Source of the DNA: Mucisphaera calidilacus
GTDB taxonomy: Bacteria; Planctomycetota; Phycisphaerae; Phycisphaerales; Phycisphaeraceae
Length of the DNA stretch: 32,000 nucleotides
Assembly (NCBI RefSeq): GCF_007748075.1
Contig: NZ_CP036280.1
Span: 210,001 to 242,000 of the forward strand
Reading direction: 5' to 3'
Of this stretch, positions 6,160 to 25,911 are shown one piece after another (positions within the stretch are counted from its first letter, which is position 1; each line of letters opens with the position of its first letter). The notes beneath the pieces are model-generated. The model saw only the letters and a list, made by a program, of their open reading frames with translations, was not told where the DNA came from and searched no databases. Position numbers and translations under genes: made by a program.

Positions 6160-7332
6160 TCAGTGCAGGAAGAAACGCACGCCCGACATCGCCATGGTCA
6201 TGCCGTGCTCGTCGGCGGCAGCCACGACGTCCTCGTCACGCTTGGACCCGCCGGCCTGAAGCACGGCCCGGACGCCGGTACGCGCCAGGCGGTCGATGTT
6301 GTCGCGGAACGGGAAGAAGGCGTCCGAGCTGCAGGCAAGGTGATCGAAACCGGCGAGGTAGTCGGCTCGCTCCGCCGCGCTGATCGGCTGTGGGTCAGCG
6401 GTCAGCCCCGCCGAGATCTGCTCGCGCTCGAAGGGGCCCAGCTCGTCCCAGCGGACATACTGATCGATGATGTTCACCTTCTCGGCACGCTTGAGCCCCG
6501 GCCTGAAGGGGAGTTCGAGCGTCCTGGGGTGCGTCTTGAGCAGCCACGCCTCCGCCTTGGTGCAGGCGAGCCGTGTGCAGGCGATGCGCGATTGCTGGCC
6601 GGCGCCGATGCCCACCGCCTGTCCCGCGTAGCCCAACGCTACGGAGTTCGACTGCGTGTGCTTGAGGGTGACCGTGGCGACGAGCAGCGTCTCGATCGCC
6701 TCGGGGGAGAAGGCCTTGTTCTTCGTCACGACGTTGCCGAGCAGCTCCGGGCCGATCGGCTGGTCGTTGCGCTTCTGGCTCAGCCGCATGCCGAACTCCA
6801 GCCGGTCCTCCATCTCAGGCGGCTCGTAGCCCGGGTCGATCTCGAGCATCAGGTAGTTGCCGCCTTTCTTGGCCCGGATGATCTCGAGCGCCTCCGGCTC
6901 GTAGCCCGGCGCGATGATGCCGTCGGATACCTCCGGCTTGAGCAGGCGCGCGAGCGACGCGTCCGCAGGCTGACTCAGCGCGACGAAATCGCCGAACGAC
7001 GCGGAGCGGTCGGAGCTGCGTGCCTTGGCGTAGGCCGAGGCGATCGGCGAGAGATTGGGCCCGTCATCGATCAGATGCCCGGCGCAGAAGACTTCGGAAA
7101 GCGGGCCCGCGACCGCCGCACCGGCGGGGCTGACGTGCTTGTAGGAGGCCGCGGCGGGCTTGCCGGTGGTCTGGGCCAGCTCGCGGACCAGCTGCCAGCC
7201 ACGCAGGGCATCAAGAATGTTGATGAAACTCGCGGCCCCATTGACCACGCGAAGCGGCGTATCCCCTTGTGGCATCTGGATTTGAGCGGGTTGTTGGTTG
7301 GGGTTGCACCCGTAACGCAGCGCGATGTCCAT
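6160..7332 (-). CDS. purH: phosphoribosylaminoimidazolecarboxamide (AICAR) formyltransferase, single-domain PurH-like protein without the IMP cyclohydrolase/MGS domain
   Basis: LRYGCNPNQQPA, SYKHVSPAG, GIGAGQQSRI, SSDAFFPFRDNI, AVLQAGGSKRDEDV and the terminal GVRFFLH all match the AICARFT half of PurH. The protein is 390 aa and starts directly at the AICARFT region. Confidence 0.8.
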   Translation of the reverse strand: MDIALRYGCNPNQQPAQIQMPQGDTPLRVVNGAASFINILDALRGWQLVRELAQTTGKPAAASYKHVSPAGAAVAGPLSEVFCAGHLIDDGPNLSPIASAYAKARSSDRSASFGDFVALSQPADASLARLLKPEVSDGIIAPGYEPEALEIIRAKKGGNYLMLEIDPGYEPPEMEDRLEFGMRLSQKRNDQPIGPELLGNVVTKNKAFSPEAIETLLVATVTLKHTQSNSVALGYAGQAVGIGAGQQSRIACTRLACTKAEAWLLKTHPRTLELPFRPGLKRAEKVNIIDQYVRWDELGPFEREQISAGLTADPQPISAAERADYLAGFDHLACSSDAFFPFRDNIDRLARTGVRAVLQAGGSKRDEDVVAAADEHGMTMAMSGVRFFLH

Positions 7333-7539
7333 CAGATTGTCTCCAGATTCTGGGATGACCGAGCTTGTCCAGACGGTTTAGACCGGTCGAGAGGTAAGAG
7401 CGTACCTGAAGTTCCGCCAAAGTCGACTGGACGAGGCTTATACAATGTGTTTCACTTGTTATACGCCTCAATCCACTGTGAGGAAGACCGAGAGATCCCC
7501 CTTCCAATCACCCGGCAGCACGTTCACCAGGAGTCCATC

Positions 7540-10500
7540 GTGTCGCAAACCCATGCTCCATCGTCCGATAATACGGTTCGCTTCGAGTCGCTTGAGGATC
7601 GTGTGCTGCTCAGCGCGGTGACGGAAAACCCCACGGGGTTCACCGTATCGCTGGGTGAGGGTCAGTCGATCCTTCTGGACTTCGACGAGGACGGCCCGGT
7701 TGCGTACGACGTTCAGGCCGACCTGATGGAGGTCTTCGCCCAGAGCAGCGCCAGCACCTCGTCGCTGCCCGTGCCCGTGGGGACCCAGCCCGAGGGCGCA
7801 CTCTCCGGCAAGATCGTCTACGTCCACGCCGGCCACGGCTACACCTGGACCAACAACAGCTTCTGGACCACCCAGCGCGGTGAGGGCTTCGAGATCGTCG
7901 AAGACATGGGCAACATGGATCAGATGAACTTCCTCATCGATCAGCTCTGGAACGCCGGCGCGACCGTCGTCCCGCTGCGTCCGGCACAGCACCAGATCAA
8001 CGAGGTCGTGCTCGATAACGTCGACGCTGAGGTGACCTTCGTCGGCAGCTGGAACAACAGCTCCTCGTCGATCTACTACGGCGAGTCGGGCGAGACGCCT
8101 TACCGCTGGGCCTCAACCTCGGGCACCGAGACCGCCTACGCCCGATACACGCCCGACATCCCCGAGGCGGGTTACTACCCCGTCTACACCTTCGCCCGCC
8201 ACGGCAGCGACCGCGTCGAGCAGCTCTACAAGGTCCACCACACCGGCGGCATCACCGAGGTCACGGTCGATCACTCGAAGGTCGGCAGCGGCTGGGTCTA
8301 CCTCGGCAACTTCTACTTCGACGAGGGCACCGACGGCTACGTCGATATCTCGAACCGCAGCGACCAGTCCGGCGTCGTGATCGCCGACGCGATCCGCTTC
8401 GGCAACGGGATGGGCGACAGCCTGCGCAACGGCTCGCCCTCGGGCTACGCCCGCGAAGACGAGGCCGGTCTCTACTGGATGGAGGCACTCGTCCGCGAGT
8501 CCCAGGGCATCTCGACCAGCGAATACCGCTCGTCCTCGGATGACCGCAGCGCGACCGTCAGCGCCTCGCCCCGCTGGGCCGAGTACATGAACCGTGAGGC
8601 CGGCGGCTCCTTCTCCGACCGCGTCTTCCTCTCCTACCACTCCAACGCCGGCGGCGGCCGCGGCGCCGTCGGACTCCACAACACCAGCAGCGGCGGCAAC
8701 ACCCCCAACCAGTTCGAGTGGGCGGAGCTGACCGGCGCGCACCTCAACGACGACATGCAGGCGATCGGCTCCCCGCCGCTTGAGCACCTCTGGTCCAACC
8801 GCTCGACCAACACCTATCAGGCTTCGTTCAACTACGGCGAGATACACAATGCCTATATCGGCGGCGAGTTCGACGCCACCATCCTCGAAGTCGCCTTCCA
8901 CGACAGCCAGTTCGACTCCGAGCTGATGCGTGACCCGGTCATGCGTCAGTGGGCGGCGCGCGCCTCGGTGCACGCGATGATCGAGTACTTCGACAACCGT
9001 AACAACGTGGCGAGCACCGTCGAGGCACCCGAGGCCGTCACCGGCGTCTCGGCCATGACCAACGCCCAGGGCGACGTGACACTCAGCTGGGACAAGCCCG
9101 CGTTCGGCGGCGTCAACGGCGACGCCGCGACCGGCTACCTCATCCAGACGTCCTTCGACGGCTACGGCTTCGACGGCGGCACCTACGTCGCCGGCGGTAA
9201 CACCCTCACCCACACCTTCGACGACCTCGACGGCGCCAACGGCGTCCACTACTTCCGCGTCCTGGCCGTCAACAACGGCGGCGTCTCCCTCGACTCCGAA
9301 ACCGTCGCGGCCAACCCCGGGCAGGCCGGCGACCCCTCCATCCTCATCGTCAACGGCTTCGACCGCTTCGACCGGACCCTCAACCCGCAGATCACCTACA
9401 GCGTCGGCACCATCGACCGCGTCCGCCCGCAGTGGATGAACAGCTTCGACTACACCGTGCAGCACGCCGACGCCATCCACGCCTACGACCCCTCGATCGG
9501 CTTCAACTCGGTCCAGAACGAGGATGTCATCAACGGCACCGTCGACCTCAACCTGTACACCACGGTCGTCTGGATCCTCGGCGAGGAATCGACCGCCGAC
9601 GCGACCTTCGACGCCACCGAGCAGGCGCTCGTGAGCTCCTTCGTCGGCAGCGGCGGCAACCTCTTCGTCTCCGGCTCCGAGATCGCTTACGACCTCGACG
9701 GCGTCAACAACGGCCAGAGCTTCTTCAACAACACGCTGGGTGCGACCTACGTCAGCGACGACTCCGACTCGAACACCGCGGCGGGTGTCAGCGGATCGAT
9801 CTTCGCCGGCATCTCGCTGAACTTCGACGACGGCGACGTCGTCTACGACGTCGACTCGCCCGACGTCATCTCCGCCACCAACGGCTCACTCGCCGCCATG
9901 ACCTACGGCGGATCGAGCGGCGGCGGCGGACGACCGGGCGGCGGAGGCGGCGGCGTAGCCGCGATCCAGCTCGAGGCCTCAGGCGGCCAGGGCGGCGTGG
10001 TCATGCTCGCCTTCCCGTTTGAGTCCATCGTCAGCCAGGACGACCGCCACGACGTGATGGCCGCGGCGCTCGGCTTCCTCGGCGCCGACCCGATCGAGCG
10101 CCCCGACGCACCGACCGACCTCGACGTCGCCATCTACACCAACCAGGCGGTCGTGAGCTGGACCCAGCCCGACGACCCGACCGCGGTCGGCGTGCACGTC
10201 GAACGCGCGGTCGCCGACGGCCTCTTCGAACGCATCACCACCGAGCCCCTGACCGACCCGGTCTTCCTCGACACCGGCCTGCTCGAGGGCATCGCGGTGG
10301 CCTACCGCGTCGTCTCCGTCGACGCAGAGGGCGTCACGAGCCTGCCGCTCGAGGTGGTCGAGGGCACGCCCCCGACCGCCACCTCGGTCGTCGCCGACAT
10401 CGACACACCGCTCTACCAGCTCGACGGCACTTGGTCCTCCTTCGTCGGGCTGGGCTACGAGGGCAGCTTTGCGCACGCCGGAACCGTCGGTGCTCCGTCG

Positions 10501-11787
10501 ACCGCCACCTGGAACCTCGACCTGGAACAGGCCGGTCACTACGAGGTCTCGGTCTTTATCCCCGAAGCGCTGATGATGGTTCCGCTGGGCCATGGCTCCT
10601 ACACCCTGACGACCACCAGCGGCACTGCGGCCGCCAGCGTCGATCAGGCTCAGTCACCCACAGGCGGCTGGCTGTCACTCGGCAGCTTCGACCTCGCTGC
10701 CGGCGAGTTCGAGCTGATCCTCGACGCCGCCGCATCGACCGACGGCTCCTTCGTGGTGGCCGACGCCATCCGTGTGGCGACCGTCACCGTCGACCAATTC
10801 CAGGACCCCGCCGAGGTCGTCGAAGTCGTCGTTGGCTCCGAAACCTGGACCCAGGCCTTCCTCGATCAGATCGATACGGGACGCGGGCTCGGCTACGGCA
10901 TGCCCGGCGGCGCGGGCCAACTCGCCTCACTGCCCTGGTCAAGCCTCAACACGATCTCGCTCGTCTTCAGCGAGGCGGTCTACGTCACACAGGATGACTT
11001 CGACTTCACCTGGAACGACGGCGCTGCCGAAGAGGCCGTCGTCTTCGTCTACGACGCGGCCGCGCACACCGCAACGTGGGTCTTCGACAGCAACGCCTAC
11101 ACGCCCGCCGGCGTGGTCACGGTCCAGCAGGTCGGCACGGTGCTCGACCACCAGGGCGTCGAAGCCGATACCGACTGGGTCAACGGCGTCTCCGAGGCCT
11201 CGGGCAACGGCATCGCGGGCGGCATGATGAACTACCTCTTCAGCGTGGTCGCCGGCAGCGCGGATGGCGACACCATGATCGACGCCAACGACATCGACGC
11301 GGTGCTCCGTGCCACGCAGGGCAACGGCGCAACGGCCTTCACCGACCTCGACGGCTCCGGCACCACCGACGCCGACGACGCCAACCTGCTCGTGATCGAC
11401 ATCCTCGGCACGCAGTTCGGCGACGCGAATCTCGATCAGTCCGTCGACCTGCTCGACCTCTCCGCACTGGCATCGAGTTTCGATGCGACCGACGGCGACT
11501 GGGCCAGCGGCGACTTCAACGGCGACGGCAACGTCGACCTGCTCGACCTCTCGCTGCTCGCTTCGAACTTCGGCTACACGGCCCCGGTCCCCGCGCCGGC
11601 GCTGGCGCAGGCAACCGTGGCTGAGCCGCAAATCGCCTCGAAGACCCAGCAGACCCAGCAGGACCAGTCACGCGTCTGGTCGCAGTCGCGTCAGCACGCC
11701 CAGCAGCAGCCGCTGACAACACGCGCCGGTGACCTCGTGGTTGATGCCGAGGAGGACGAGGCCGTCTTCGGTCTCTGGGAAAGCTGA
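7540..11787 (+). CDS. large multidomain surface/secreted-type protein. It has a LEPR-XLL-like N-terminus, an amidase_3-like domain split by a golvesin-C/Xly-like carbohydrate-binding insertion, FN3-like modules, a second CBD-like module, and C-terminal dockerin/EF-hand-like repeats.
   Basis: GTG at 7540 is in frame with ORF 6163..11787 and is preceded by AGGAG at 7529-7533. Everything upstream is antisense to purH. Motifs seen:
- RFESLEDRVLLSA at residues 14-26.
- GKIVYVHAGHGY, FLSYHSNAGGGRG and ILEVAFHDS (MurNAc-L-Ala amidase-like).
- Two VxFxGxW...G.Y.V...GGW..LG.F...ADAIRF/V modules.
- GDANLDQSVDLLDLSALA and GDFNGDGNVDLLDLSLLASNFG repeats. Confidence 0.8.
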   Translation: MSQTHAPSSDNTVRFESLEDRVLLSAVTENPTGFTVSLGEGQSILLDFDEDGPVAYDVQADLMEVFAQSSASTSSLPVPVGTQPEGALSGKIVYVHAGHGYTWTNNSFWTTQRGEGFEIVEDMGNMDQMNFLIDQLWNAGATVVPLRPAQHQINEVVLDNVDAEVTFVGSWNNSSSSIYYGESGETPYRWASTSGTETAYARYTPDIPEAGYYPVYTFARHGSDRVEQLYKVHHTGGITEVTVDHSKVGSGWVYLGNFYFDEGTDGYVDISNRSDQSGVVIADAIRFGNGMGDSLRNGSPSGYAREDEAGLYWMEALVRESQGISTSEYRSSSDDRSATVSASPRWAEYMNREAGGSFSDRVFLSYHSNAGGGRGAVGLHNTSSGGNTPNQFEWAELTGAHLNDDMQAIGSPPLEHLWSNRSTNTYQASFNYGEIHNAYIGGEFDATILEVAFHDSQFDSELMRDPVMRQWAARASVHAMIEYFDNRNNVASTVEAPEAVTGVSAMTNAQGDVTLSWDKPAFGGVNGDAATGYLIQTSFDGYGFDGGTYVAGGNTLTHTFDDLDGANGVHYFRVLAVNNGGVSLDSETVAANPGQAGDPSILIVNGFDRFDRTLNPQITYSVGTIDRVRPQWMNSFDYTVQHADAIHAYDPSIGFNSVQNEDVINGTVDLNLYTTVVWILGEESTADATFDATEQALVSSFVGSGGNLFVSGSEIAYDLDGVNNGQSFFNNTLGATYVSDDSDSNTAAGVSGSIFAGISLNFDDGDVVYDVDSPDVISATNGSLAAMTYGGSSGGGGRPGGGGGGVAAIQLEASGGQGGVVMLAFPFESIVSQDDRHDVMAAALGFLGADPIERPDAPTDLDVAIYTNQAVVSWTQPDDPTAVGVHVERAVADGLFERITTEPLTDPVFLDTGLLEGIAVAYRVVSVDAEGVTSLPLEVVEGTPPTATSVVADIDTPLYQLDGTWSSFVGLGYEGSFAHAGTVGAPSTATWNLDLEQAGHYEVSVFIPEALMMVPLGHGSYTLTTTSGTAAASVDQAQSPTGGWLSLGSFDLAAGEFELILDAAASTDGSFVVADAIRVATVTVDQFQDPAEVVEVVVGSETWTQAFLDQIDTGRGLGYGMPGGAGQLASLPWSSLNTISLVFSEAVYVTQDDFDFTWNDGAAEEAVVFVYDAAAHTATWVFDSNAYTPAGVVTVQQVGTVLDHQGVEADTDWVNGVSEASGNGIAGGMMNYLFSVVAGSADGDTMIDANDIDAVLRATQGNGATAFTDLDGSGTTDADDANLLVIDILGTQFGDANLDQSVDLLDLSALASSFDATDGDWASGDFNGDGNVDLLDLSLLASNFGYTAPVPAPALAQATVAEPQIASKTQQTQQDQSRVWSQSRQHAQQQPLTTRAGDLVVDAEEDEAVFGLWES

Positions 11788-11859: not shown

Positions 11860-13755
11860 GTGGGATCGCTGCTGAGGTTGTGCATGTCATCCCATGTTCA
11901 TGGCATCGGAGAAGTAACGGCGACGCAGTCGGTCACCGAGGACCCCTTCGGCTACGACGGCCCGCCGGACCAGTTCCTCGCCCGCTTCCTGGCCTCCCAG
12001 CGTGCCGCCGGCCTGAGTCTCGGCGGAGCACTCCTGCGCCCCGAACGCGAGGGCGTCGTGGAAGTGCTCGCGCTCGACCCCTCCCCGACGTCGGGCGGCG
12101 GGAGCCGCCCCGCATGGCTCACCAGCGCCACCCAGGGCGTCGCCACCGTCATGGCCGAGGGCCAGGCACGCGTCCTGCCCTTTCAGGACACCGGCGGGAT
12201 GTACCTCACCGGACCGAGCGGTTACCTCGGCCTCCTGCCCCTGCGTGGCGAGGGCCCGGTACGAGGCGTCGCCGCCTACCTCCTCGACGAAACCACCCAG
12301 CACGGCGCCGAACTCGCCGTGCGCCGGCTCGAACTGACCTGCGCCTCACTCGGCCTCTACGAGCTCAAGCGGACCTTCGAACGCAAGCAGGCCGACCTCG
12401 AACTGATGGGCGGGGCGGTCTCGCTGCTCGCCTCCGTCTCCGAACACGACCGGTTCAAGGCCGCCGCCATGGCCGCCTGCAACGAACTGGCCCAGCGCAC
12501 CAAGGCGATGCGCGTGAGCTTCGGCGTCCTCCGCGGCCGCTACATGCGCGTGCTCGCCATGAGCCAGACCGAACAACTCAACCGCAAGATGCGCCTCATC
12601 CAGGACATCGAGAGCGCGATGGAGGAGTGCCTCGATCAGGACCTCGAGATCCTGCACCCCGCGCCCGACAACGCCGACTTTGTGAGCCGTGCCACCGCCG
12701 ACCTCGCCGAAAGACACGGCCCCTCACGCATCCTCACCATCCCCATGCGGCTCGATGGCGTGCCCGAAGCCGTGATGCTCATCGAGCTCCCCACCGATCA
12801 GGGACTCACCGCCCGCCAGGTCGAGGCGCTGCGGCTGACCTCCGACCTGCTCGCACCGGCACTCATCCGCCAGAGCCGGCAGGACCGCTGGTTCGGCGCG
12901 CGGTTCGCGGCCTTCTGCAAACGCCACGCCGGGGAGATCGTCGGCCCGAGACACACCTGGGCCAAACTCACCGCCATCGCGCTGCTGATCGTGCTGCTCG
13001 TCTCCGTGCTCTACCCGGCGCGCTACCGCGTCGAGGGCACCTTTGTCATCAAGGCCTCCGAACGCCAGATCGTCGCAGCGCCCTTCGGCGGGTATCTCGC
13101 CGAGGTGCACGTCGAACCGGGCGACAACGTCGTGGCCGGCCAGACCGTGCTGGCGACCCTCGACACCGCCGACCTCACGCTCGAACTCGCCTCCCTGCTG
13201 GCGGAGATCGAGAGCTACCGCAAGGACGAGGCCATGGCACGACGCGACGGCGACATCGCCGGCCAGCAGATCGCCCAGGCACGACGCGACGAGGCCCAGG
13301 CCCAGGCCGACCTCATCGCCTACCGCATCGAACAGGCCGTCATCCGGGCACGCGTCGACGGCGTCCTCGTCGAGGGCGACCTCAAGCGGCAGATCGGCGT
13401 CGCCCTCGAACTCGGCCAGCCGATGTTCGAGGTCGCACCCCTCGACACCCTCTACGCCGAACTGAGCGTCCCCGAGACACGCGTCACCGAGGTCGAAGTC
13501 GGCCAGACCGGACTGCTGGCGTCGGTCGCGCGCCCCGGCACCTACCTGCCCTTCGCCGTCGACCGCATCGACCCGGCCGCCGAGGTCGTCGAGGGCCAGA
13601 ACGTCTTCAAGGTACGCCTGAGTTTCGACGAGCAACCCGCCGAGCTCCAGCCCGGGATGCAGGGCGTCGGCAAGGTCGACGTCGGCCGCAGGCCCCTCAT
13701 GTACATCTGGACCCGTGACGCGATCCGCTGGCTGCGCATGCAGCTCTGGATCTGA
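11860..13755 (+). CDS. HlyD-family periplasmic adaptor (membrane fusion protein) with a cytoplasmic N-terminal domain of about 360 aa (possibly tandem GAF-like)
   Basis: A single TM segment (WAKLTAIALLIVLLVSVLY) is followed by HlyD hallmarks: VAAPFGGYLAEVHVEPGDNVVAGQTVLATLDT (lipoyl-like), a coiled-coil stretch, then IRARVDGVLVE and a beta-barrel tail. An alternative start is the ATG at 11884. The GAF assignment for the N-domain is a guess from its alpha/beta pattern only. Confidence 0.75.
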   Translation: MGSLLRLCMSSHVHGIGEVTATQSVTEDPFGYDGPPDQFLARFLASQRAAGLSLGGALLRPEREGVVEVLALDPSPTSGGGSRPAWLTSATQGVATVMAEGQARVLPFQDTGGMYLTGPSGYLGLLPLRGEGPVRGVAAYLLDETTQHGAELAVRRLELTCASLGLYELKRTFERKQADLELMGGAVSLLASVSEHDRFKAAAMAACNELAQRTKAMRVSFGVLRGRYMRVLAMSQTEQLNRKMRLIQDIESAMEECLDQDLEILHPAPDNADFVSRATADLAERHGPSRILTIPMRLDGVPEAVMLIELPTDQGLTARQVEALRLTSDLLAPALIRQSRQDRWFGARFAAFCKRHAGEIVGPRHTWAKLTAIALLIVLLVSVLYPARYRVEGTFVIKASERQIVAAPFGGYLAEVHVEPGDNVVAGQTVLATLDTADLTLELASLLAEIESYRKDEAMARRDGDIAGQQIAQARRDEAQAQADLIAYRIEQAVIRARVDGVLVEGDLKRQIGVALELGQPMFEVAPLDTLYAELSVPETRVTEVEVGQTGLLASVARPGTYLPFAVDRIDPAAEVVEGQNVFKVRLSFDEQPAELQPGMQGVGKVDVGRRPLMYIWTRDAIRWLRMQLWI

Positions 13756-13763
13756 GGTGAACG

Positions 13764-15965
13764 ATGTCGACGCGCCGTCCCCTCTTCAGCGAGTCGTGGT
13801 ACCGGGTGGCGGAGATGGCGCCCCGACTGCGCCCGCAGATCGACACCTACCGCCAGCACTACCGCGGACGGCTCTGGCACGTGCTCCGCGACCCCTCGAA
13901 CAACAAGTTCTTCAGGCTCGATGAGGCCTCCTACCGATTCGTCGCGATGCTCAACGGCCGGCGGACCATCCGCGAGGTCTGGGAAGCCTGCTGCGACCAG
14001 CTCCAGGACCAGGCGCTGACTCAGGGCGAAGCCATCCAGGTCATCGGCCAGCTCTACACCTCCAACCTGCTCGACGCCGACGTCTCCGCCGACACCGCCG
14101 GCATCTTCGACCGCTACAAGCAGCGACGCCAACGCGAGGTGTCGGGCTACATGATGAACCTGCTCTTCGCGCGGATCCCCATCTACGACCCCGACGCGTT
14201 CCTCGACAAGTGGGTGCACCTCACACGATGGGCCTTCGGTCCCGTCGGCCTCATCCTCTGGTGCCTGCTCGTCGGCGCGGGGCTGTTCGTGGCGATCGGA
14301 CGCTCGGACGCCCTGCTCAGCCAGGCATCCTCGGTGATCGCGCCGCGCAACCTCTTCTGGCTCTACATCGCGATCGTCGTCATCAAGCTCTGGCACGAGA
14401 TGGGACACGGCTTCGCCTGCAAGCACTTCGGGCAGCAGCGCCACGCCGGCGGCGAGGTCCACACCCTCGGCGTCATGCTGCTCGTGCTCGTCCCCGTGCC
14501 CTACGTCGACGCCTCCTCCTCGTGGGCGCTGCGCAACAAGTGGCACCGCTTCTGGGTCGGCGCCGCGGGCATGTACTTCGAACTGGCGGCGGCGGCGCTC
14601 GCCACCTTCGTCTGGGCCGCCACCAACGCGCAGACGTCCTTCTACGGCGTCCCGGTCCACGCCCTCGCCTACAACGTCATGTTCATCGCAGGCGTCAGCA
14701 CCATCCTCTTCAACGCCAACCCGCTCATCCGCTTCGACGGCTACTACATGCTCTCCGACGCGCTCGAGGTCCCCAACCTCATGCAGCGGTCGAAGGACTA
14801 CCTCTACTACCTCGTACGCAAGTACCTCTACGGCGTACGCCGGCCCATGAACCCCGCCCACGTGCACGGCGAAGCGCCCTGGCTCTTCAGCTACGCGATC
14901 CTCTCGAGCATCTACCGCGTCTTCCTCCTCACCTCGATCCTCCTGTTCGTCGCCGACCAGTTCTTCTTCCTCGGCATGATCTTCGCCATCTCCGGCCTCA
15001 TCGGCTGGGTGGGCACGCCCCTCTGGAAGTGGGTCAAGTACCTCGCCACCAACCCCGAACTCGCGCGCACACGCTCACGAGCCGTCATGGCCTCCGCGAC
15101 GCCGATCGTGCTCCTGCTCGTCCTGCTTGGCGTCGTGCCCGCGCCGGAACACGGACGGGCCGAGGGCGTGGTCGAGGCCGATCGCCGAGCGGTCGTCTTC
15201 GCCGGCGCCGACGGCGTGCTGGATACGATCGCCGAGCAGTCATCGACCGTCCCGCGAGGCGGCCTCCTGATGCGCGCGCACAACGCACAACTCGAGAGCC
15301 AGCAACGCGAGCTCGTGGCACGTCTCGAGCAGATCCGCGTGCAGCTCGCGCAGGCACGCACCGAGAGCACGGCCGAGGCCCAGGCACTGCTCGAGCAGCA
15401 GACGGCCCTGCGTCAACGGCTCGACCGGGTCAATCAGCAGATCGTCTCGCTCGAGGTCACCGCGCCGTTCGAGGGCCGCTGGGACGCCCAGCCCGAACTG
15501 GTGCCCGGCCTCTACCTCCGGCAGGGCGAAGCGATCGGCACCTTCCTCGACGACCGCGACCCGCGCGTGCGCATCATCGCCGACCAGTCACTCGGCCCGC
15601 GTCTCTGGGCCCGGTACGCCGAGGGCCTGCTGTCCGTCGAGTTCCGCGTCTCGGGCCTGCCCGAGACCACACTCAACGGCGCCATCACCCGCGTCGCCCC
15701 CGCCGGCCAGAGCCAGCTCCCCAGCCCCGCGTTATCCATGGGCGCCGGCGGCCTGATGCCCACCGACCCCGAAGACCCCAATGGACAACGCGCCGCAGAA
15801 CCCTTCTTCGAGGTCCGTATCACCCCCGAGATCGAAACGGAACACCACGGCTACCTGCGCCCCGGCCAACGCGTCGTCGCACGCTTCGCGCTCGGCTACC
15901 GACCGCTGCTCTGGCAGTGGTGGGACGCCCTCTCACGCCTGCTCCAGGAACGGTTCCAGGTCTGA
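13764..15965 (+). CDS. fusion protein: PqqD/RRE-like N-domain + M50 (site-2 protease) zinc metalloprotease membrane domain + C-terminal HlyD-like adaptor domain
   Basis: - HEMGH at nt 14394-14408, inside a TM helix.
- NANPLIRFDG (NxxPxxxxDG, the second S2P motif) at 14712-14741.
- N-terminal FFRLDEASYRFVAMLNGRRTIREVWEAC...GEAIQVIGQLYTSNLL resembles the PqqD family.
- From about residue 463: RAEGVVEA..., a coiled coil, then LEVTAPFEGRW, which is HlyD-like.
- The gene starts 8 nt after the upstream stop. Confidence 0.8.
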   Translation: MSTRRPLFSESWYRVAEMAPRLRPQIDTYRQHYRGRLWHVLRDPSNNKFFRLDEASYRFVAMLNGRRTIREVWEACCDQLQDQALTQGEAIQVIGQLYTSNLLDADVSADTAGIFDRYKQRRQREVSGYMMNLLFARIPIYDPDAFLDKWVHLTRWAFGPVGLILWCLLVGAGLFVAIGRSDALLSQASSVIAPRNLFWLYIAIVVIKLWHEMGHGFACKHFGQQRHAGGEVHTLGVMLLVLVPVPYVDASSSWALRNKWHRFWVGAAGMYFELAAAALATFVWAATNAQTSFYGVPVHALAYNVMFIAGVSTILFNANPLIRFDGYYMLSDALEVPNLMQRSKDYLYYLVRKYLYGVRRPMNPAHVHGEAPWLFSYAILSSIYRVFLLTSILLFVADQFFFLGMIFAISGLIGWVGTPLWKWVKYLATNPELARTRSRAVMASATPIVLLLVLLGVVPAPEHGRAEGVVEADRRAVVFAGADGVLDTIAEQSSTVPRGGLLMRAHNAQLESQQRELVARLEQIRVQLAQARTESTAEAQALLEQQTALRQRLDRVNQQIVSLEVTAPFEGRWDAQPELVPGLYLRQGEAIGTFLDDRDPRVRIIADQSLGPRLWARYAEGLLSVEFRVSGLPETTLNGAITRVAPAGQSQLPSPALSMGAGGLMPTDPEDPNGQRAAEPFFEVRITPEIETEHHGYLRPGQRVVARFALGYRPLLWQWWDALSRLLQERFQV

Positions 15966-17965
15966 TGGTCGGCTCGACCCCCGATTCCGACCTCGCCGCA
16001 CCGCCCAGCCAGCTCTGGCGCAACCTCTCGCGACCGGCCAAACCGCCCAAGCTCCCGCGCGGCCTCGACGGCTTCTGGAACCTCGCCACCGGACGCATCG
16101 TCCCGCTCATCCCGCGCACCCGTCGCTACCTCCAGCGCGCCCAGCGGATCCACGAGGCCGCCGAGGCGCACCGCACCGCCGCCGTCCCCGCACTCGACCA
16201 GCGGGTCGAGGACCTGCGAGCCACCTTCCGCAAGGGGCGCGCCGAACGCGAGCACGTCGACGAGGCCATGGCCCTGATCGTGGAGCTGGCCGACCGCACG
16301 CTCGGCATGCGGCCCTACGTGGTCCAGGTCGCCGCCGGCCTGTCGATGTTCGACGGCTGCCTCGCCGAGGTGGCCACCGGCGAGGGCAAGACGCTCATCG
16401 CGACCCTCCCCGCGATCCTCGCCGGCTGGCGCGGCCGCGGCTGCCACGTCGTCACCGTCAACGACTACCTCGCCCAACGCGACGCACAGACCATGGGGCC
16501 GCTCTACCGCAAGGCAGGCCTGCGCGTCGCCTCCGTCCACCAGGAACTCAAAGACGACGAACGCCGACAGGCCTACCTCGCCGACGTCACCTACCTCACC
16601 AACAAGGAAGTCGCCGCCGACTACCTGCGCGACCGGCTCAAGCAGGGCAAGGCACGCGGGCTCGCCTCGACACTCGTCGACGCCATCACCACCGGACGCG
16701 GGTCCTATGGCCGGGGGATGGTCCAGCGCGGGCTCGCCTGCGCCATCGTCGACGAGGCCGACTCCGTGCTCATCGACGAGTCGGTCACACCCCTGATCAT
16801 CTCGACCGAGGCCGACAACGAAGACCAGGCCCAGGCGTTCAAACAGGCGGTCGCCATGGCCGACCAGCTCGAACGCGACCGCGACTACAAGGTCGTCGCC
16901 CGCTACAAGGAAATCGAGCTGACGCGCGCCGGACGCGAACGCTCACGCGAGATCGCCGAGTCCCTCGACCTCTCAGGCGTCTGGTCGACGCCACGCGGCC
17001 GCGAAGAACTCGTGCACCAGGCCCTCTCCGCTAAAGAGCTCTTCCTGCCGGGCCAGCAATACGTCATCCAGGAGGGCAAGGTGGTGATCGTCGACGAGTC
17101 GACCGGCCGCCTCATGCCCGACCGTTCCTGGCGGCACGGCCTCCACCAGGCCGTCGAGGCCAAGGAGGGGCTGGACGTCAGCGGCGCCAAGGAGACACTC
17201 GCCCGCATCAGCTTCCAGCGCTTCTTCCGCATGTACGAGAACCTCTCGGGTATGACCGGCACGGCATGGGAAGAACGCTACGAGTTCTGGGAGGTCTACA
17301 GCCTCGCAACCGTCCGATTCCCGACGCACCGACCCCGGATCCGCGAGGAGATGCCCGACCGCGTCTTCGCCTCCGCCGAGGCACGCTGGCTCGCGGTCGT
17401 CGAGGAAATACGCCAGCTCCACGCCACCGGGCGCCCGGTCCTCATCGGCACACGCTCGGTCGAGGCCAGCGAGAAACTCAGCTCGCTCCTCGCCGCGCAA
17501 GGGATCCACCACGAGGTGCTCAACGCCGTACGCCACGCCGAGGAAGCCGCCATCGTCGCCCGGGCCGGCGAACGAGGCCGCGTCACCGTCGCCACCAACA
17601 TGGCCGGCCGAGGCACCGACATCAAGCTCTCCCGAGGCGTCGCGGAACTCGGCGGGCTCGCGGTCATCGCGACCGAACGCCACGAGTCAGGCCGCGTCGA
17701 TCGGCAGCTCTTCGGACGCGCCGGCCGCCAGGGCGACCCCGGCTCAGCCGTCTGCTTCGTGAGCCTCGAAGACGAACTGATCAAACGCTACACACGCGCC
17801 GTCGACCGCGCGATCCTCTCGAACTACGCCGGCAACCCCGTCGCCGCCAGCTACCTCTTCAACCAGGCCCAGGGCCGAGCCCAGCGCATGGCACGGGCCA
17901 ACCGCAAGGGCGTCCTGGAACACGACCACTGGCTGGAGAAACACCTCGGCTTCGCCCCGGAATAG
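15965..17965 (+). CDS. SecA-like DEAD-motor ATPase (NBD1-PPXD-NBD2), truncated after the start of the helical scaffold
   Basis: The ATG at 15965 overlaps the upstream TGA (TGATG). Motifs: LAEVATGEGKTL (Walker A, nt 16373-16396), VVTVNDYLAQRD, IVDEADSVLIDESVTPLIIS (DEAD box at 16751-16762), FQRFFRMYENLSGMTGTA, TNMAGRGTDIKL and TERHESGRVDRQLFGRAGRQGDPGS. The protein is 666 aa and ends shortly after RKGVLEHDHW. This is the last part of the 14210..17965 ORF in the track. Confidence 0.85.
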   Translation: MVGSTPDSDLAAPPSQLWRNLSRPAKPPKLPRGLDGFWNLATGRIVPLIPRTRRYLQRAQRIHEAAEAHRTAAVPALDQRVEDLRATFRKGRAEREHVDEAMALIVELADRTLGMRPYVVQVAAGLSMFDGCLAEVATGEGKTLIATLPAILAGWRGRGCHVVTVNDYLAQRDAQTMGPLYRKAGLRVASVHQELKDDERRQAYLADVTYLTNKEVAADYLRDRLKQGKARGLASTLVDAITTGRGSYGRGMVQRGLACAIVDEADSVLIDESVTPLIISTEADNEDQAQAFKQAVAMADQLERDRDYKVVARYKEIELTRAGRERSREIAESLDLSGVWSTPRGREELVHQALSAKELFLPGQQYVIQEGKVVIVDESTGRLMPDRSWRHGLHQAVEAKEGLDVSGAKETLARISFQRFFRMYENLSGMTGTAWEERYEFWEVYSLATVRFPTHRPRIREEMPDRVFASAEARWLAVVEEIRQLHATGRPVLIGTRSVEASEKLSSLLAAQGIHHEVLNAVRHAEEAAIVARAGERGRVTVATNMAGRGTDIKLSRGVAELGGLAVIATERHESGRVDRQLFGRAGRQGDPGSAVCFVSLEDELIKRYTRAVDRAILSNYAGNPVAASYLFNQAQGRAQRMARANRKGVLEHDHWLEKHLGFAPE

Positions 17966-17980: not shown

Positions 17981-18814
17981 TTATTCAGCCGGCTCAAGCG
18001 ACGCCAGGCGAACCACAAATCCCGAGGGCAGACCGCCGTCGGGATTGTCGATCTCAAAGACACAGCGGAACGTCTGCGAAGCCGGGTCGATGATCGCGTC
18101 CACGATCGTGAGCCTGCCCCGCAGCGACTCGGACGCGGGCGCCGACCCGATCAGCCCGTACATCGCGTTGAGCTTCATGTCGCCGTACACCTCCGCCGGC
18201 AGGTGAATCTCGGCACGGATCGGGCTGATGCTCACGATCGCCAGCAGCGAGTCCTCGGTCTGGACCGTCTCGCCCGACTCCACCGTCCGCCGCAGCACCA
18301 CGCCGTCGAACGGCGCGTCCAGCCGGTAACGATCCAGACGCTCCAGCTCCAACTCGTAACGCTTCTCCGCGATCAGCTTGTTGTCCTTCGCCAGCTGCAG
18401 GTCAGCGGTCGCCTGATCACGCTGCACGCGCGTCCGCCGAACCTCCCACTCGCTGGCCGCGTCCTTCTCGAAGCTCGTGGTCACCCGGTCAAGCAGGATC
18501 TGCGCCTCCTCGAGGGCGTACTGCGCTCGCAGGATCTGGGCGTCGCTCTCCGCCTGCAGCCTCGACGACTCGGTCGACAGCCGCTGAATCGCGTCGTCCA
18601 TCTGCAGCAGCGGTTGACCCTCCTTGACATACTCGCCCTCCACCACCAGCACCTGCTCGACGATCCCGTCCACCGGCGCCGAAAGCTGAACCTGCTGGGC
18701 CGGACGCGTCACGCCCTCGTAACGCGACAGGTTGATCCGGCTCTGACCGAGCACGGGAAGCGAGGTCACAAAACCGACGATCAGGCCGGCGACGATGGCA
18801 TAGTGGTACTTCAT
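17981..18814 (-). CDS. HlyD/efflux-type periplasmic adaptor subunit, with no adjacent pump
   Basis: ATG at 18814 (MKYHYAIVAGLIVGFVTSLPVLGQ signal/anchor). VQLSAPVDGIVEQVLVVEGEYVKEGQPLLQMDD, a coiled coil, then LDAPFDGVVLRR. The upstream 196 codons of ORF 17981..19402 overlap ruvA antisense and I rejected them. Confidence 0.75.
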   Translation of the reverse strand: MKYHYAIVAGLIVGFVTSLPVLGQSRINLSRYEGVTRPAQQVQLSAPVDGIVEQVLVVEGEYVKEGQPLLQMDDAIQRLSTESSRLQAESDAQILRAQYALEEAQILLDRVTTSFEKDAASEWEVRRTRVQRDQATADLQLAKDNKLIAEKRYELELERLDRYRLDAPFDGVVLRRTVESGETVQTEDSLLAIVSISPIRAEIHLPAEVYGDMKLNAMYGLIGSAPASESLRGRLTIVDAIIDPASQTFRCVFEIDNPDGGLPSGFVVRLASLEPAE

Positions 18815-18887
18815 GCCCGCACGGTACCGCGAGGACGACCCGGGCGGCAAGGCGGCATCACCGCCACGCTGCGTGTACGCTGAGCGC

Positions 18888-22278: not shown

Positions 22279-25200
22279 TCAGGCCGCTCCCCGTCGTCGC
22301 AGCAAGGCACAGCCGAGGCCGAGAATCGTCAGTCCGGCAGGCTCGGGGATCGAGTAGAGGGCGACGTCGTTGCCGTCTCCGCCGCGATAGGTGATGAACA
22401 TGTCGATGCCGTTGAAACGCGTGACCAACGCGCCCTCGGCAAGCCCGTCGAACGTGCCCGTCAACAGGCCATCAACATGGATAAAGGTGTAGCTCTCGCC
22501 GAGCACCGCGTTGTAGTAATCACCCGAGAACTCGAGCTGACCCATCAGCGTCAGGTCGCCGGTGACCTGTAACCCCTGGATGTATGAATAGAGACTGATC
22601 AGCAGTTCAGCCTCGGTGCTGAGTTGGGTGTAATCCCCAAGAACGAAGCCGCGGGTGCGCCCCAACGGCTGGAACGTGCCGGTGTCATGGTCAAAGTCAC
22701 CCTCGATCCGCCGCGTAAAGAGCAGATCGCCATTGAAGTCAAACGTCCCTTCCTCTTCAATCACGACGCTCCCCGTCTCGAGCGAATCGCCATTGAACTC
22801 GAACTCGGCACCCGGCGCAACCTCAATGCTGCCCGATGTTTGTATGAAATTACCCGAGGCCCGCAGCCGGCCGTTTTCGGCGCGAACGATGCCTCCATTC
22901 TGGATGTCAACCTCCAGCGATCCGAAGCCTCGGATGGTGTTATCACGATTGAGGATGCCACCAGAGGCAGCGTCCGGATGTTTGCGGATGATCGCCTCGT
23001 GGTTGCTGAGAACAATCTCCCCGCCTCCGGTCAGCATCACCGTGTCATTCAGATACAGGATCTCGTGGTTCGCGAAGCCGCTGTTCTCGAAGGTGATCAC
23101 GCCCGTGTTGTGGATGTCACCCCCGATCAGCCGGTCGCTGATCGACACGGTCATCGTGCCTTCGAGCGTGAAATCTTCGAGTAGCCCGCCGACGATCACG
23201 CCCCCCGGCGCGATCCGGAGCGTCCCGCCGCGGATCGTGCCGCTCAGATCCAGAAGTGACCCCGCCGGCACCTCGACGACGCCCCGGTTGTCGATGTCGG
23301 CCTTGATCGTGCCCCGTCCGTCGATGCGGATCGTGTTGTCGATGTTGATCAGCCCGCCGGTCGTCTCGCCGAACTGAGCGATCCACGCGTCGGAGCTGTT
23401 GAGAATCACCGCGCCGCCGCCGTCGAGTGTCACCTGCCCATCCAGCCAGAGCGCCTCGACATTGGAGAATCCCGAGTTCTCATAGGTGATGACGCCGGTG
23501 TTCGTGATCCCATTACGCACGACCAGCTCATCAATGCTGACCCGAAACATCCCTGACATCTCAACGTCTTCCAGGCCGTTGCCGTCGATCCAGACGTTGC
23601 CCTCGGACACCAACCGGCCGCCCACGAGGCTCCCACCCAGCCGCAGCCGGGCACCGTCGCGGATGACGACTTCTCCGTTGGCGTTGTCCGTCTCCGAGAG
23701 GATCAGCCGCCCGCCCGAAGCGATCACCGTGTCGTGATTGACAAGCGGGACGTTGATGCTGCCGTTGCCCGAGATCGTGTTGTTGAGGTTGACCAGCCCA
23801 CCGACCCCCTCGACCTGATTGATCCGCGCATCAGCGCTGGTCATGATCACCTCGCCGTTGCCCGTCAGCGTGACCTGCCCGTGCAACCCGAGGATCTCGT
23901 TGTTCGCGAATCCGCTGTTCTGGAAGCGAATCGTGCCCCGGTTGTCCAGCGTGCCCCTGACCGGACGGTCGTCCATGCTGACCGTCAGGGTGTCCACATT
24001 CGTCACGTCCTCGATCAGCCCGCCGATGATCAGCCCGCCCGGCTCGATGTCCAGCGTGCCGCCGCTGAGGGTCCCGCCGAGGTTGAGTACCGAACCACCA
24101 CCTATCGCCACCGTGCCCGTGTTGGTCACGTCGACGAGGAGGTTGCCCCGACCGCTGGTCCGGATCGTGTTGTCGATGTTGACCAGTCCACCGGTCCCGC
24201 TCGCCTGGGTGATCCTTGCGTCGCCACTGTTGAGGATCACCGTGCCCCCGCCCGTCAGCGTCACCTGGTCATGCAGGCCAAGGTTCTCATAGTTGGAGAA
24301 TCCGCTGTTCTCGAACGTGATCAGACCCGTGTTGTTCAGGGTCCCCGCCGCGCCAAGGTCGCTGCTGCTCACCGTCACCGTGCCCGTCGTGGTCACGTCT
24401 CGGATGCCCACCCCCGCGATCAGCCCGCCCGGTTCGCCAACGATCACGCCGTTCGACAACTCGCCCAGAAGGTGCAGCCGCCCGTTTCCAGCGATCTCGA
24501 CCTCCCCGCCCGTGTTGTCCGTCGTCCCGATGTAGAGAGTTCCGTTCTCGGCGCGGATCAGACCCTGATTCGTGATCGCACTGCTGATCCTGCCCACACC
24601 ACGCAGCGTGTTGTCGACATTTACGATCTCGCCGCTGCCCGACGACGGCTCGATCCGAGCCTCGCTGCTGTTGAGCACGAACTCCCCGCCGCCGGTCAGC
24701 GTGACCTGTTCAACAACACCCAGCACCTCGTTGTTCGAGAATCCGCTGTTCTGGAACGTGATCGTGCCCGTGTTGTTGATCGCTCCGGCCATCTTCGCAT
24801 CGTCGAGACTGACCACCAGCAACCCGTTGACCGTTAGGTCACGGAAGGCCTCGCCCGAAATCTTCCCGCCCTCGCCGGTCAGCGTGCCGCCCGACAACGC
24901 ACCGATTAGGCTCAGCCGTCCGTTGCTCGCGACCTGAACCGCTCCGCCCGTGTTGTCGGTTGTCGCAAGCAGCAGCGTGCCGTTCTCCGCGCGAATCACG
25001 CCGGCATTGGTGACGCTCGCCGTGATCCGGCCGTTGCCGCGGATGGTGTTGTCCGTGTTGATCAGCCCGCCCGTGCCGAATAGCTGCGAGATCTTTGCGT
25101 CGCTGCTGGTCATCAGGACTTCACCGCCGCCTGTCAGCGTCACCGGCCCGTTAAGACTCAGACGCTCCGTGTTCGAGAAGCCATGGTTCTGGAAGGCGAA

Positions 25201-25536
25201 CACGCCTGCGTTGTCGATCTCCCCCAAGACGGTCAGGTCGTCGAAGGTCATCGTGAACATGCCGCCGGGCGCGATGGTGATACCGCCAACCTCGCCTCCG
25301 CCGGCCACCGCCGCCACACCCGCCGGGAACGTCGCCGTGTCCGATCGCCTCGGGAAGACCTTGATGGTCCCAGGCGACGTCTCGTTCACCCAGTTGTCCG
25401 CGGTGTTCCAGGCCGTTCCCGCGCCGCCGACCCATGTAAACACGTCACCGGCAGCCTGAGCCGACATCGCAGCCGACAGAAGCGCCGCCATCGTGTAAGC
25501 CGAAGCCGAATACCCGCATACTCGGAATGCAAACAT
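22279..25536 (-). CDS. PEP-CTERM-anchored beta-helix-like repeat protein
   Basis: Signal peptide MFAFRVCGYSASAYTMAALLSAAMSAQAAG, from the ATG at 25536 (the track starts at a GTG at 25551). Six tandem repeats follow, and the C-terminus is IPEPAGLTILGLGCALLRRRGAA (PEP motif + TM + Arg-rich tail). Confidence 0.8.
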   Translation of the reverse strand: MFAFRVCGYSASAYTMAALLSAAMSAQAAGDVFTWVGGAGTAWNTADNWVNETSPGTIKVFPRRSDTATFPAGVAAVAGGGEVGGITIAPGGMFTMTFDDLTVLGEIDNAGVFAFQNHGFSNTERLSLNGPVTLTGGGEVLMTSSDAKISQLFGTGGLINTDNTIRGNGRITASVTNAGVIRAENGTLLLATTDNTGGAVQVASNGRLSLIGALSGGTLTGEGGKISGEAFRDLTVNGLLVVSLDDAKMAGAINNTGTITFQNSGFSNNEVLGVVEQVTLTGGGEFVLNSSEARIEPSSGSGEIVNVDNTLRGVGRISSAITNQGLIRAENGTLYIGTTDNTGGEVEIAGNGRLHLLGELSNGVIVGEPGGLIAGVGIRDVTTTGTVTVSSSDLGAAGTLNNTGLITFENSGFSNYENLGLHDQVTLTGGGTVILNSGDARITQASGTGGLVNIDNTIRTSGRGNLLVDVTNTGTVAIGGGSVLNLGGTLSGGTLDIEPGGLIIGGLIEDVTNVDTLTVSMDDRPVRGTLDNRGTIRFQNSGFANNEILGLHGQVTLTGNGEVIMTSADARINQVEGVGGLVNLNNTISGNGSINVPLVNHDTVIASGGRLILSETDNANGEVVIRDGARLRLGGSLVGGRLVSEGNVWIDGNGLEDVEMSGMFRVSIDELVVRNGITNTGVITYENSGFSNVEALWLDGQVTLDGGGAVILNSSDAWIAQFGETTGGLINIDNTIRIDGRGTIKADIDNRGVVEVPAGSLLDLSGTIRGGTLRIAPGGVIVGGLLEDFTLEGTMTVSISDRLIGGDIHNTGVITFENSGFANHEILYLNDTVMLTGGGEIVLSNHEAIIRKHPDAASGGILNRDNTIRGFGSLEVDIQNGGIVRAENGRLRASGNFIQTSGSIEVAPGAEFEFNGDSLETGSVVIEEEGTFDFNGDLLFTRRIEGDFDHDTGTFQPLGRTRGFVLGDYTQLSTEAELLISLYSYIQGLQVTGDLTLMGQLEFSGDYYNAVLGESYTFIHVDGLLTGTFDGLAEGALVTRFNGIDMFITYRGGDGNDVALYSIPEPAGLTILGLGCALLRRRGAA
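22780..25203 (-). repeat. six in-frame tandem coding repeats with periods of 146, 147, 130, 147 and 131 aa
   Basis: I used the anchor motif I(T/R)F(Q/E)NSGF(S/A)N ... VTLTGGGE ... DNTIRG. The GFSN/GFAN anchors fall at residues 124, 270, 417, 547, 694 and 825, numbered from the GTG at 25551. Confidence 0.75.
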
Positions 25537-25683
25537 ATCCAGATTCCTCACTCCAAAACTGATTAAATCGCTAGACGAGTACCCGCATCATACTACCTTA
25601 TGATTTAAACTCCACACCCTTTCCGCAATTTCTGCCAACCTCGGGTAAATACATGGCTCGCTCCTCGGCGGCACCCTGTAGCG

Positions 25684-25911
25684 TCACGGATCCGCCTCGT
25701 CCAGCACCTGCGTGAACACCGTCTGACCGCTCCGGAGCATCGCGCTCAGATAAGGCCGACACATCCCGCAGCAGGTCGATGCTCCCGTTCGCAGCGCCAG
25801 CTCATCGAGATTCAACCCGTCGCGCTCGGCCTGCGCAAGCAGGTCCGTAAACGCCTGACGCGTGCAGACACAGCGATCAATACAAATGGGGGGGCAGGAA
25901 TCAGGCATCAT
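25684..25911 (-). CDS. BFD-like [2Fe-2S]-binding domain protein
   Basis: 75 aa with the Cys pattern C-x-C ... TGASTCCGMCRPYL, typical of bacterioferritin-associated-ferredoxin-like domains. The start overlaps the stop of the upstream gene (TAATG). Confidence 0.7.
   Translation of the reverse strand: MMPDSCPPICIDRCVCTRQAFTDLLAQAERDGLNLDELALRTGASTCCGMCRPYLSAMLRSGQTVFTQVLDEADP

Follow-up and report, generated by a model that had tools for sequence, protein, structure and literature searches.

The 1415-amino-acid (aa) protein encoded at positions 7540 to 11787 of a 32,000-nucleotide stretch of the Mucisphaera calidilacus genome (contig NZ_CP036280.1, positions 210,001 to 242,000; the whole stretch is referred to here as the window) carries, over its N-terminal ~27 residues, a leader of the LEPR-XLL type and not a Sec signal peptide. 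The protein is probably the cis-encoded cargo of the four-gene cassette that follows it, which would act as a type-I-like exporter whose N-terminal leader is recognized by an RRE (PqqD-like RiPP recognition element) domain and cleaved by an M50 metalloprotease. The motif (2004) and the cassette (2015) were each already known, but the connection between them seems to be new; a literature search found no paper that joins them. Judged from sequence, the link is well supported by gene neighbourhoods, with strong evidence that LEPR-XLL genes are enriched directly beside the cassette in Planctomycetota, Verrucomicrobiota, Nitrospira, and Proteobacteria. The features concerned are listed below by window position, strand, and basis.

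7540..11787, plus strand: gene for the 1415-aa protein with a LEPR-type leader, an amidase-like core, carbohydrate-binding-module (CBM)-like inserts, fibronectin type III (FN3) modules, and dockerin repeats (open reading frame; NCBI protein match)
7529..7533, plus strand: Shine-Dalgarno-like AGGAG (6 nt ahead of the GTG start)
7540..7776, plus strand: predicted disordered leader and linker, residues 1-79, with no hydrophobic core (h-region) (predicted local distance difference test score, pLDDT, <50; maximum Kyte-Doolittle mean 0.83)
7579..7620, plus strand: LEPR-XLL-type motif RFESLEDRVLLSAV, residues 14-27 (NF012209 score; kept in ~111 of 120 homologues)
11860..13755, plus strand: cassette gene 1, 631 aa, GAF-like cytoplasmic domain, transmembrane segment, and HlyD-type periplasmic adaptor (domain matches)
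13764..15965, plus strand: cassette gene 2, PqqD/RRE-like domain (residues ~20-100), M50 membrane metalloprotease (137-457; HExxH 211-215), and MacA/AcrA-like adaptor (459-731) (domain matches, model)
15965..17965, plus strand: cassette gene 3, SecA-like ATPase that lacks the wing/scaffold domain and has a DEAD motor, a preprotein cross-linking domain, and a second P-loop (domain matches)
17981..18820, minus strand: cassette gene 4, small HlyD/biotin-lipoyl-type adaptor with an N-terminal anchor, convergent (domain matches)

Translation of the 1415-aa protein is assigned to the GTG at 7540-7542, separated from the AGGAG by a 6-nt spacer, as an earlier reading made from the window alone (the sequence-only reading) had proposed; the M. 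calidilacus protein at NCBI is 100% identical and has the identical start. That reading had also held that no upstream extension supplies an h-region and that the gene ends 72 nt ahead of a cassette on the same strand, and both points are borne out. The frame upstream of GTG 7540 is open solely as the antisense of purH (6160-7332), and the sole intergenic in-frame start, GTG 7447, adds 31 residues without a hydrophobic stretch. Since the frame remains open as far back as 6163, one might suppose that an ordinary Sec or Tat signal peptide begins at another start codon; this is most improbable, given the antisense nature of the upstream part, the non-hydrophobic extension, the agreement of the NCBI start, the absence of an RR pair, and the orthologues P0002 and P0003, which begin at the equivalent place with an identical motif. 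Alternative start codons were accordingly rejected. The open reading frame ends at 11787 and the next gene begins at 11860, leaving a gap of 72 nt. A promoter/terminator scan returned no promoter of the sigma-70 type, and from the amidase gene to the cassette no terminator-like site on the plus strand, each of which is weak evidence either way.

The N-terminal sequence of the protein is MSQTHAPSSDNTVRFESLEDRVLLSAV, and within its first ~79 residues the motif reads RFESLEDRVLLSA. Residues 1-79 have an AlphaFold2 pLDDT <50 and residues 80-490 fold confidently. The maximum 12-residue Kyte-Doolittle mean over the first 70 residues is 0.83, which on this heuristic measure leaves no h-region for a Sec signal, and residues 1-80 contain neither the RR pair of a Tat twin-arginine signal nor the Cys of a lipobox. 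NCBIfam model NF012209 (LEPR-XLL) scores 16.3 bits over residues 14-26 (E=0.0055), a marginal match that falls formally just below the cutoff of 17, and the orthologue P0002 (60% identical) bears the NCBI name LEPR-XLL. In ~111 of 120 homologues the motif occupies the equivalent place (median motif start, residue 29), with the family consensus R-x-L-x-[FL]-E-x-L-E-P-R-x-L-L-S-A-A-G-L-V; together with the hydropathy, this upholds the claim, made from the window alone, of a LEPR-XLL-like N-terminus without an h-region. The motif usually ends 7 residues ahead of a conserved G-x-Q-P-x-G core, and ~60 residues ahead of it in the subfamily of the window protein. Four orthologues among the 120 homologues (P0087, P0095, P0098, and P0113) carry instead a hydrophobic Sec-like N-terminus joined to identical AAGLVxVGTQP sequence, and because the exchange occurs at this junction the motif appears to take the place of a removable export signal, which suggests a cleavage point near LLS(A). 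A conserved hydrophobic stretch (e.g., RALVAVLTIVTGVVGG) followed by RR lies upstream of the LEPR motif in P0004-P0012, P0053, P0065, and others, 16 of the 120 in all.

The window protein thus shares with the LEPR-XLL domain (NF012209) its N-terminal position and the FExLExRxLLSA core, and the family is one of large surface or secreted proteins that includes the nearest orthologue by NCBI name; it differs in having D for P (LEDR), in its score just under the cutoff, and in that the carrier here is a 1415-aa enzyme and not a giant adhesin. The domain is equivalent to RRLxxExLExRxLLA, the "planctomycete-specific signal peptide" that Studholme et al. (2004, as cited in PMC8567305) put forward as a signal for export. 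Tuwongella immobilis has 52 proteins with the motif, including 8 of its 10 longest (PMC8567305). No machinery is assigned to the LEPR-XLL family in the literature found, in agreement with the initial statement that the export route of these proteins is not established (PMC8567305).

The genes of the cassette are tightly packed, with an 8-nt gap between genes 1 and 2 and a TGATG at which the ATG of the SecA-like gene overlaps the stop codon of the M50 gene by 1 nt. The order first given for it (SecA-like, M50, HlyD) is corrected here to GAF-HlyD, RRE-M50-HlyD, SecA-like, and a convergent small HlyD; the RRE-like domain and M50 protease first read in it are retained, the protease with its catalytic motifs intact and the putative RRE-like fold in keeping with the secondary structure of the model. 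The motifs HExxH (H211, E212, H215) and NxxPxxxxDG (N317, N319, P320, D325) are invariant in 24 aligned homologues, and Pfam Peptidase M50 scores 21.2 bits vs a cutoff of 27.2. In the AlphaFold model of the RRE-M50-adaptor protein (pLDDT 80.5) an N-terminal domain, a helical membrane core, and a C-terminal adaptor are distinguishable, and the RRE-like domain is composed of strands 27-33, 36-43, and 48-52 followed by helices 54-61, 69-83, and 87-99. Several homologues of this protein carry the Pfam PqqD domain (PF05402), and some are named "PqqD family" by NCBI. Its C-terminus has the HlyD/membrane-fusion-protein fold of tripartite-pump adaptors, matching MacA, MexA, and AcrA at E~1e-11 (Foldseek) and EmrA at 6.5e-8 (profile). 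The cassette departs from classical type I secretion in that no ABC transporter of the HlyB type is encoded in the window cassette or the annotated plasmid loci, and in that the candidate signal is N-terminal, where classical cargo has a C-terminal secretion signal.

Kamneva, Poudel and Ward (2015; PMC4452313) described this gene set as a "secondary SecA_DEAD / type-I-secretion-related locus", with cargo and function unassigned and without mention of a signal motif or of PqqD. The cassette agrees with that locus in all four proteins (GAF-HlyD, M50, SecA_DEAD lacking the wing/scaffold domain SecA_SW, and HlyD/biotin-lipoyl) and in taxonomic spread; the differences are that in the window the gene for a LEPR-type protein ends 72 nt ahead of it and that the cassette is coupled to LEPR-XLL genes across phyla. 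The SecA-type motor keeps the preprotein cross-linking domain without the wing/scaffold domain, the SecY-interacting role being taken from the literature (PMC4452313). SapC was reported often to be near the cassette, and next to it in Proteobacteria (S2 Table of that study); signs of horizontal transfer of the cassette were described, as was its presence in one Chlorobi species (PMC4452313).

Searches with an M50 profile yielded 158 independent cassette loci, of which 80 lie in GTDB genomes and 78, duplicates excluded, in metagenomes, and the four-gene cassette is kept in nearly all of them. The frequency of open reading frames with a LEPR-type N-terminus falls with distance from the cassette as follows.

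Neighbour rank 1: 19 of 195 (9.7%)
Neighbour rank 2: 8 of 148 (5.4%)
Neighbour rank 3 or beyond: 5 of 336 (1.5%)

Between rank 1 and rank 3 or beyond the difference is significant in the pooled loci (Fisher test, odds ratio 7.1, p=3e-5), and two of the five distant matches appear spurious; the metagenome replicate by itself gives p=0.09 for the same comparison. Eight of ten neighbour N-termini score above the NF012209 cutoff (18.5-36 bits). In Nitrospira, as in the window, the LEPR gene precedes the cassette on the same strand; in Verrucomicrobiota and some Planctomycetota it follows the SecA-like gene; elsewhere it is divergent from the small adaptor gene or convergent. A LEPR neighbour is present on a gammaproteobacterial contig as well. 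Save for the motif, the cassette-adjacent proteins are unrelated, being of cadherin/Big/RTX, PATR, lipase-like, or amidase type, or without any Pfam domain. The amidase family stands ahead of the cassette in the Mucisphaera clade, with synteny over the entire neighbourhood, and in at least two further flanking contexts (L014 and L085); in other genomes it is located elsewhere (e.g., L084), and cassette locus L004 has no amidase match. In L086 and L087, LEPR-XLL proteins of ~2,000 aa are preceded by same-strand genes of 12,755 and 14,004 codons. The N-terminus of the giant neighbour in Thiomicrospira (L082) was not recovered by protein search, most of its homologues being internal fragments; the only two homologues with real N-termini carry LEPR-XLL, and other giant genes fill their loci, hiding any cassette.

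A tblastn search of PLSDB with the M50 protein returned 19 alphaproteobacterial records, of which ten were examined, and in all ten the cassette is directly preceded, on the same strand, by a giant LEPR-XLL gene of ~3,500-12,900 codons. The call rests on the Prokaryotic Genome Annotation Pipeline (PGAP) name in four plasmids; in the other six it rests on a motif read at the annotated start or slightly ahead of it.

Pontibrevibacter: PGAP name "LEPR-XLL domain-containing protein"; motif not read
Pseudosulfitobacter: PGAP name LEPR-XLL; motif not read
Thalassospira: PGAP name LEPR-XLL; motif VEPIEPRILLSAD
Rhodobacteraceae M382: PGAP name LEPR-XLL; motif not read
Methylosinus: translation; motif IIFDTLEPRVLLNAD
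Mesorhizobium ciceri: translation; motif VHFEALEPRLLLSAD
Sinorhizobium: translation; motif LALETLEPRYLLSAD
Pseudohalocynthiibacter: translation; motif VLMETYEPRLLLSAD
Alisedimentitalea: in frame just upstream of the annotated start; motif VVEQLEPRLLLAAD
Rhizobium johnstonii: in frame just upstream of the annotated start; motif IIFESLEPRLLLSAD

The RefSeq starts of the giant genes in Alisedimentitalea (L176/L178) and R. johnstonii (L185) are thus probably too short. The plasmid pairing is kept over three alphaproteobacterial orders with very different cargo bodies. Genes for DUF3467, SapC, and TolC are frequent companions of the plasmid cassettes. DUF3467 (~95-127 aa) is a frequent fifth member (L168, L169, L172, L174, L181, L185, and at least 37 of L004-L167) whose gene in Proteobacteria separates the giant LEPR-XLL gene from the GAF-adaptor gene, and it may be a cargo chaperone; it is absent from the window and from L001-L003. 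SapC-family and TolC genes recur beside proteobacterial cassettes (L170, L178, and L184). In Chlorobium chlorochromatii, LEPRxLL giants, which reach >36,000 aa, are flanked by sapC and tolC and cluster in co-expression with a horizontally acquired secA, Cag_1676 (bioRxiv 10.64898/2026.03.19.712371); the Chlorobium link is indirect, Cag_1676 being a candidate for the SecA of the cassette.

In the proposed mechanism, the cytoplasmic PqqD/RRE domain of the M50 protein would capture the leader, the SecA-like ATPase, replacing an ABC transporter, would drive the unfolded chain, and the M50 protease would take off the leader, putatively near the LLS-A junction, while the three HlyD-type adaptors would join a TolC-type outer-membrane channel to give one-step export. 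It would make sense for a peptidoglycan amidase to bypass the periplasm of the cell that makes it, speculative as this is. A wider proposal, which is held more tentatively and at somewhat less than even confidence, is that the LEPR-XLL leader and the cassette constitute an unrecognized protein secretion system of diderm bacteria, with DUF3467, SapC, and TolC as accessories. Such a system would be marked by an N-terminal leader signal, a SecA paralogue in place of an ABC transporter as motor, leader removal by an intramembrane metalloprotease, and coupling to TolC, and would handle enzymes like the amidase along with the largest known bacterial proteins in bacteria of the Planctomycetes-Verrucomicrobia-Chlamydiae (PVC) group, Nitrospirota, Chlorobiota, and Proteobacteria.

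Peptidase-containing type I exporters (colicin V CvaAB-TolC; PCAT) transport small bacteriocins with double-glycine N-terminal leaders by means of a C39 cysteine peptidase and an ABC transporter. They are the closest functional analogue, in that a protease of the exporter cuts an N-terminal leader and an HlyD-type adaptor and TolC complete a one-step route, as is proposed here; the cassette, in contrast, has an RRE-M50 metalloprotease in place of the C39 peptidase, a SecA paralogue in place of the ABC transporter, and cargo of up to 12,900 aa in the loci examined. The RRE-M50 proteases of ribosomally synthesized and post-translationally modified peptide (RiPP) systems (daptide NF041824; YydH/LiaK NF058609) likewise fuse a PqqD-like element to an HExxH intramembrane protease that removes leader peptides. 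The daptide family is the best NCBIfam match of the cassette protein; however, the latter scores far under the family cutoffs (151 bits vs 300 for NF041824; 21.8 bits vs 225 for NF058609), has an extra C-terminal periplasmic adaptor domain, and is partnered by a SecA-like ATPase and HlyD, without RiPP tailoring enzymes or short precursor genes, although no dedicated search for small open reading frames was made. The accessory SecA2 and SecA2-SecY2 systems of Gram-positive bacteria employ a second SecA motor for large surface proteins with atypical N-terminal signals, and are discussed in PMC4452313. A second SecA-type motor dedicated to special large surface proteins with such signals would be the feature in common, whereas the SecA paralogue of the cassette is without the wing/scaffold domain, has no SecY2, is partnered by M50 and tripartite-pump adaptors, and belongs to diderm hosts.

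Several observations weigh against reading the 1415-aa protein as cargo of the cassette. About 80% of PVC-type cassette loci have no LEPR gene in view (~20% do), and a conservative shuffle of genes within loci left the enrichment marginal (p=0.11 over all loci; p=0.035 where six or more flanking genes were present). The interpretation advanced in the sequence-only reading is partly upheld: the enrichment beside the cassette and all ten plasmid copies speak for its pairing of motif and cassette, these two results set limits to it, and binding of the leader by the RRE-like domain and its removal by M50 are proposed steps. LEPR proteins also outnumber cassettes by far, as T. immobilis illustrates, so that most would need service in trans. 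The ten plasmid loci probably share ancestry as a mobile unit and thus do not count as ten independent events; one of them (Thalassospira marina, L174) is without a SecA-like gene while having the LEPR-XLL gene, DUF3467, two adaptors, M50, and TolC. At the level of the domains, Pfam PqqD scores 18.7 bits on the RRE-like domain vs a cutoff of 23.4, and the hydrophobic stretch ahead of the motif in 16 of the 120 homologues fits purely cytoplasmic recognition poorly. Some LEPR giants, moreover, have the C-terminal RTX repeats typical of classical type I substrates (Vibrio, PMC10868602; Nitrospira L045).

Some of these points would be accommodated if LEPR-XLL were a general non-classical export or anchoring signal served by housekeeping machinery (Sec/YidC or another route), with the cassette exporting something else (a small RiPP-like peptide that the RRE-M50 protein processes, or a non-protein substrate) and travelling with surface-protein genes in mobile islands. 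The PVC loci without a LEPR neighbour, the hydrophobic segments before the motif, the four orthologues with a Sec-like N-terminus, the signs of horizontal transfer (PMC4452313), and the daptide protease as best match, under its cutoff, are all in keeping with this explanation. It is nonetheless unlikely, since the giant lies directly upstream on the same strand in all ten plasmid cassettes, since the motif is the only thing that the neighbours have in common, and since the preprotein cross-linking domain of the SecA-type motor implies that the substrates are long polypeptides. Nor was a conserved small precursor gene seen beside the cassette, with the limit on small open reading frames already given, the recurrent small neighbour being DUF3467. 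The RTX repeats, in turn, together with the SapC and TolC neighbours and the GAF-like sensor domain fused to an adaptor, would suit a device for regulated maturation or release that acts after or beside classical type I secretion, with LEPR-XLL as an N-terminal retention segment of giant adhesins that M50 cuts under GAF control, in the manner of LapG/LapD on LapA. This explanation appears less likely still: the loci examined encode no ABC transporter (see also PMC4452313), the window protein has no RTX repeats, and the RRE and SecA-like protein are cytoplasmic, which implies recognition ahead of export.

If the link between the LEPR-XLL motif and the cassette is true, two orphans would explain each other, namely a motif proposed in 2004 as the export signal of planctomycete surface proteins, and since seen on giant proteins from many phyla, and a "second SecA" cassette described in 2015 without known cargo. 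It would provide an export route for some of the largest bacterial proteins, including symbiosis factors of >20,000 residues, add a SecA-driven, M50-processed branch to type-I-like secretion, and supply a simple sequence tag with which to predict the PVC secretome; standard signal-peptide predictors would be expected to miss the motif because it has no hydrophobic core. The link is experimentally accessible, as the cassette and an adjacent LEPR-XLL giant occur in tractable Methylobacterium (candidate carrier M. extorquens AM1, META1p2399-2402), Ruegeria (R. pomeroyi DSS-3, SPO2714-2718), and Rhizobium.

Beyond its leader, the 1415-aa protein is predicted to be an extracytoplasmic enzyme of the peptidoglycan-amidase type, and the amidase, CBM, FN3, and dockerin character first attributed to it is recovered at the level of fold (Foldseek, Pfam). 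Its parts, all on the plus strand, are as follows.

7777..9009: N-acetylmuramoyl-L-alanine-amidase-like core, residues ~80-490, with the first Golvesin_C module inserted in it (Foldseek; invariant residues; PF01520 in homologues)
8005..8403: Golvesin_C domain 1, residues 156-288, CBM6/CBM35-like fold (Pfam, Foldseek)
9034..9306: FN3-like module 1, residues 499-589, weak (profile match)
10078..10362: FN3-like module 2, residues ~847-941 (titin and myomesin FN3 matches)
10390..10776: Golvesin_C domain 2, residues 951-1079 (Pfam 1.7e-18)
11419..11562: dockerin-type Ca-binding repeats, residues 1294-1341 (borderline score)
11587..11784: Q-rich C-terminal tail with an acidic patch and FGLWES at its end (kept in a subfamily)

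Pfam identifies two Golvesin_C domains (8.5e-51), a weak fn3, and a borderline Dockerin_1 in the protein, with no RTX repeats and no match to Amidase_3 (PF01520) even at E<=1; PF01520 does match homologues at 53-60% identity. A sequence search of the PDB gave FN3 matches only. The modelled core matches the amidases Ami1/Rv3717, AmiC, and CwlD, and the insert matches CBM6/CBM35 (Foldseek). H99, E121, H367, and E450 are invariant in 26 sequences, and we infer that they correspond to the Zn-binding H/E/H set and the catalytic E. The predicted fold and this set of residues are shared with Amidase_3 enzymes (AmiA/AmiC, Ami1/Rv3717, and CwlD), from which the window protein differs in a catalytic domain split by the Golvesin_C/CBM-like insert, in the lack of a score with the Pfam model, in the long FN3/CBM/dockerin extensions after the core, and in an N-terminus that is a LEPR leader in place of a Tat or Sec signal. 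The locus of homologue P0006 (L084) places a LEPR-motif amidase homologue among genes for AnmK, NamZ, a beta-lactamase, and a gamma-glutamyltranspeptidase, that is, among genes of MurNAc/peptidoglycan recycling, which fits a cell-wall substrate for the family. The Q-rich tail with its acidic patch and C-terminal [FL]GLW[ED] is also found in P0002, P0003, P0022, and P0031, and could serve as a second signal for sorting or anchoring; the homologues P0049 and P0078, which lie beside a cassette, do not have it.

Other secreted-type proteins are encoded on the minus strand further along the window. A 501-aa protein (27497-29002) has a hydrophobic signal-like N-terminus, a PEP-CTERM-like end (VPEPAVALLLSLGLVVDASRR), and dockerin repeats near-identical in style to the C-terminus of the 1415-aa protein, from which it follows that this genome stretch also uses Sec and PEP-CTERM sorting for dockerin proteins. 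A 1090-aa repeat protein (22279-25551) has a classical signal peptide and a PEP-CTERM tail (IPEPAGLTILGLGCALLRRRGAA) and gave no Pfam match. Between these two lies a gene (25911-26681) for a DUF1559 protein with a type IV pilin-like N-terminal methylation motif, typical of Planctomycetota.

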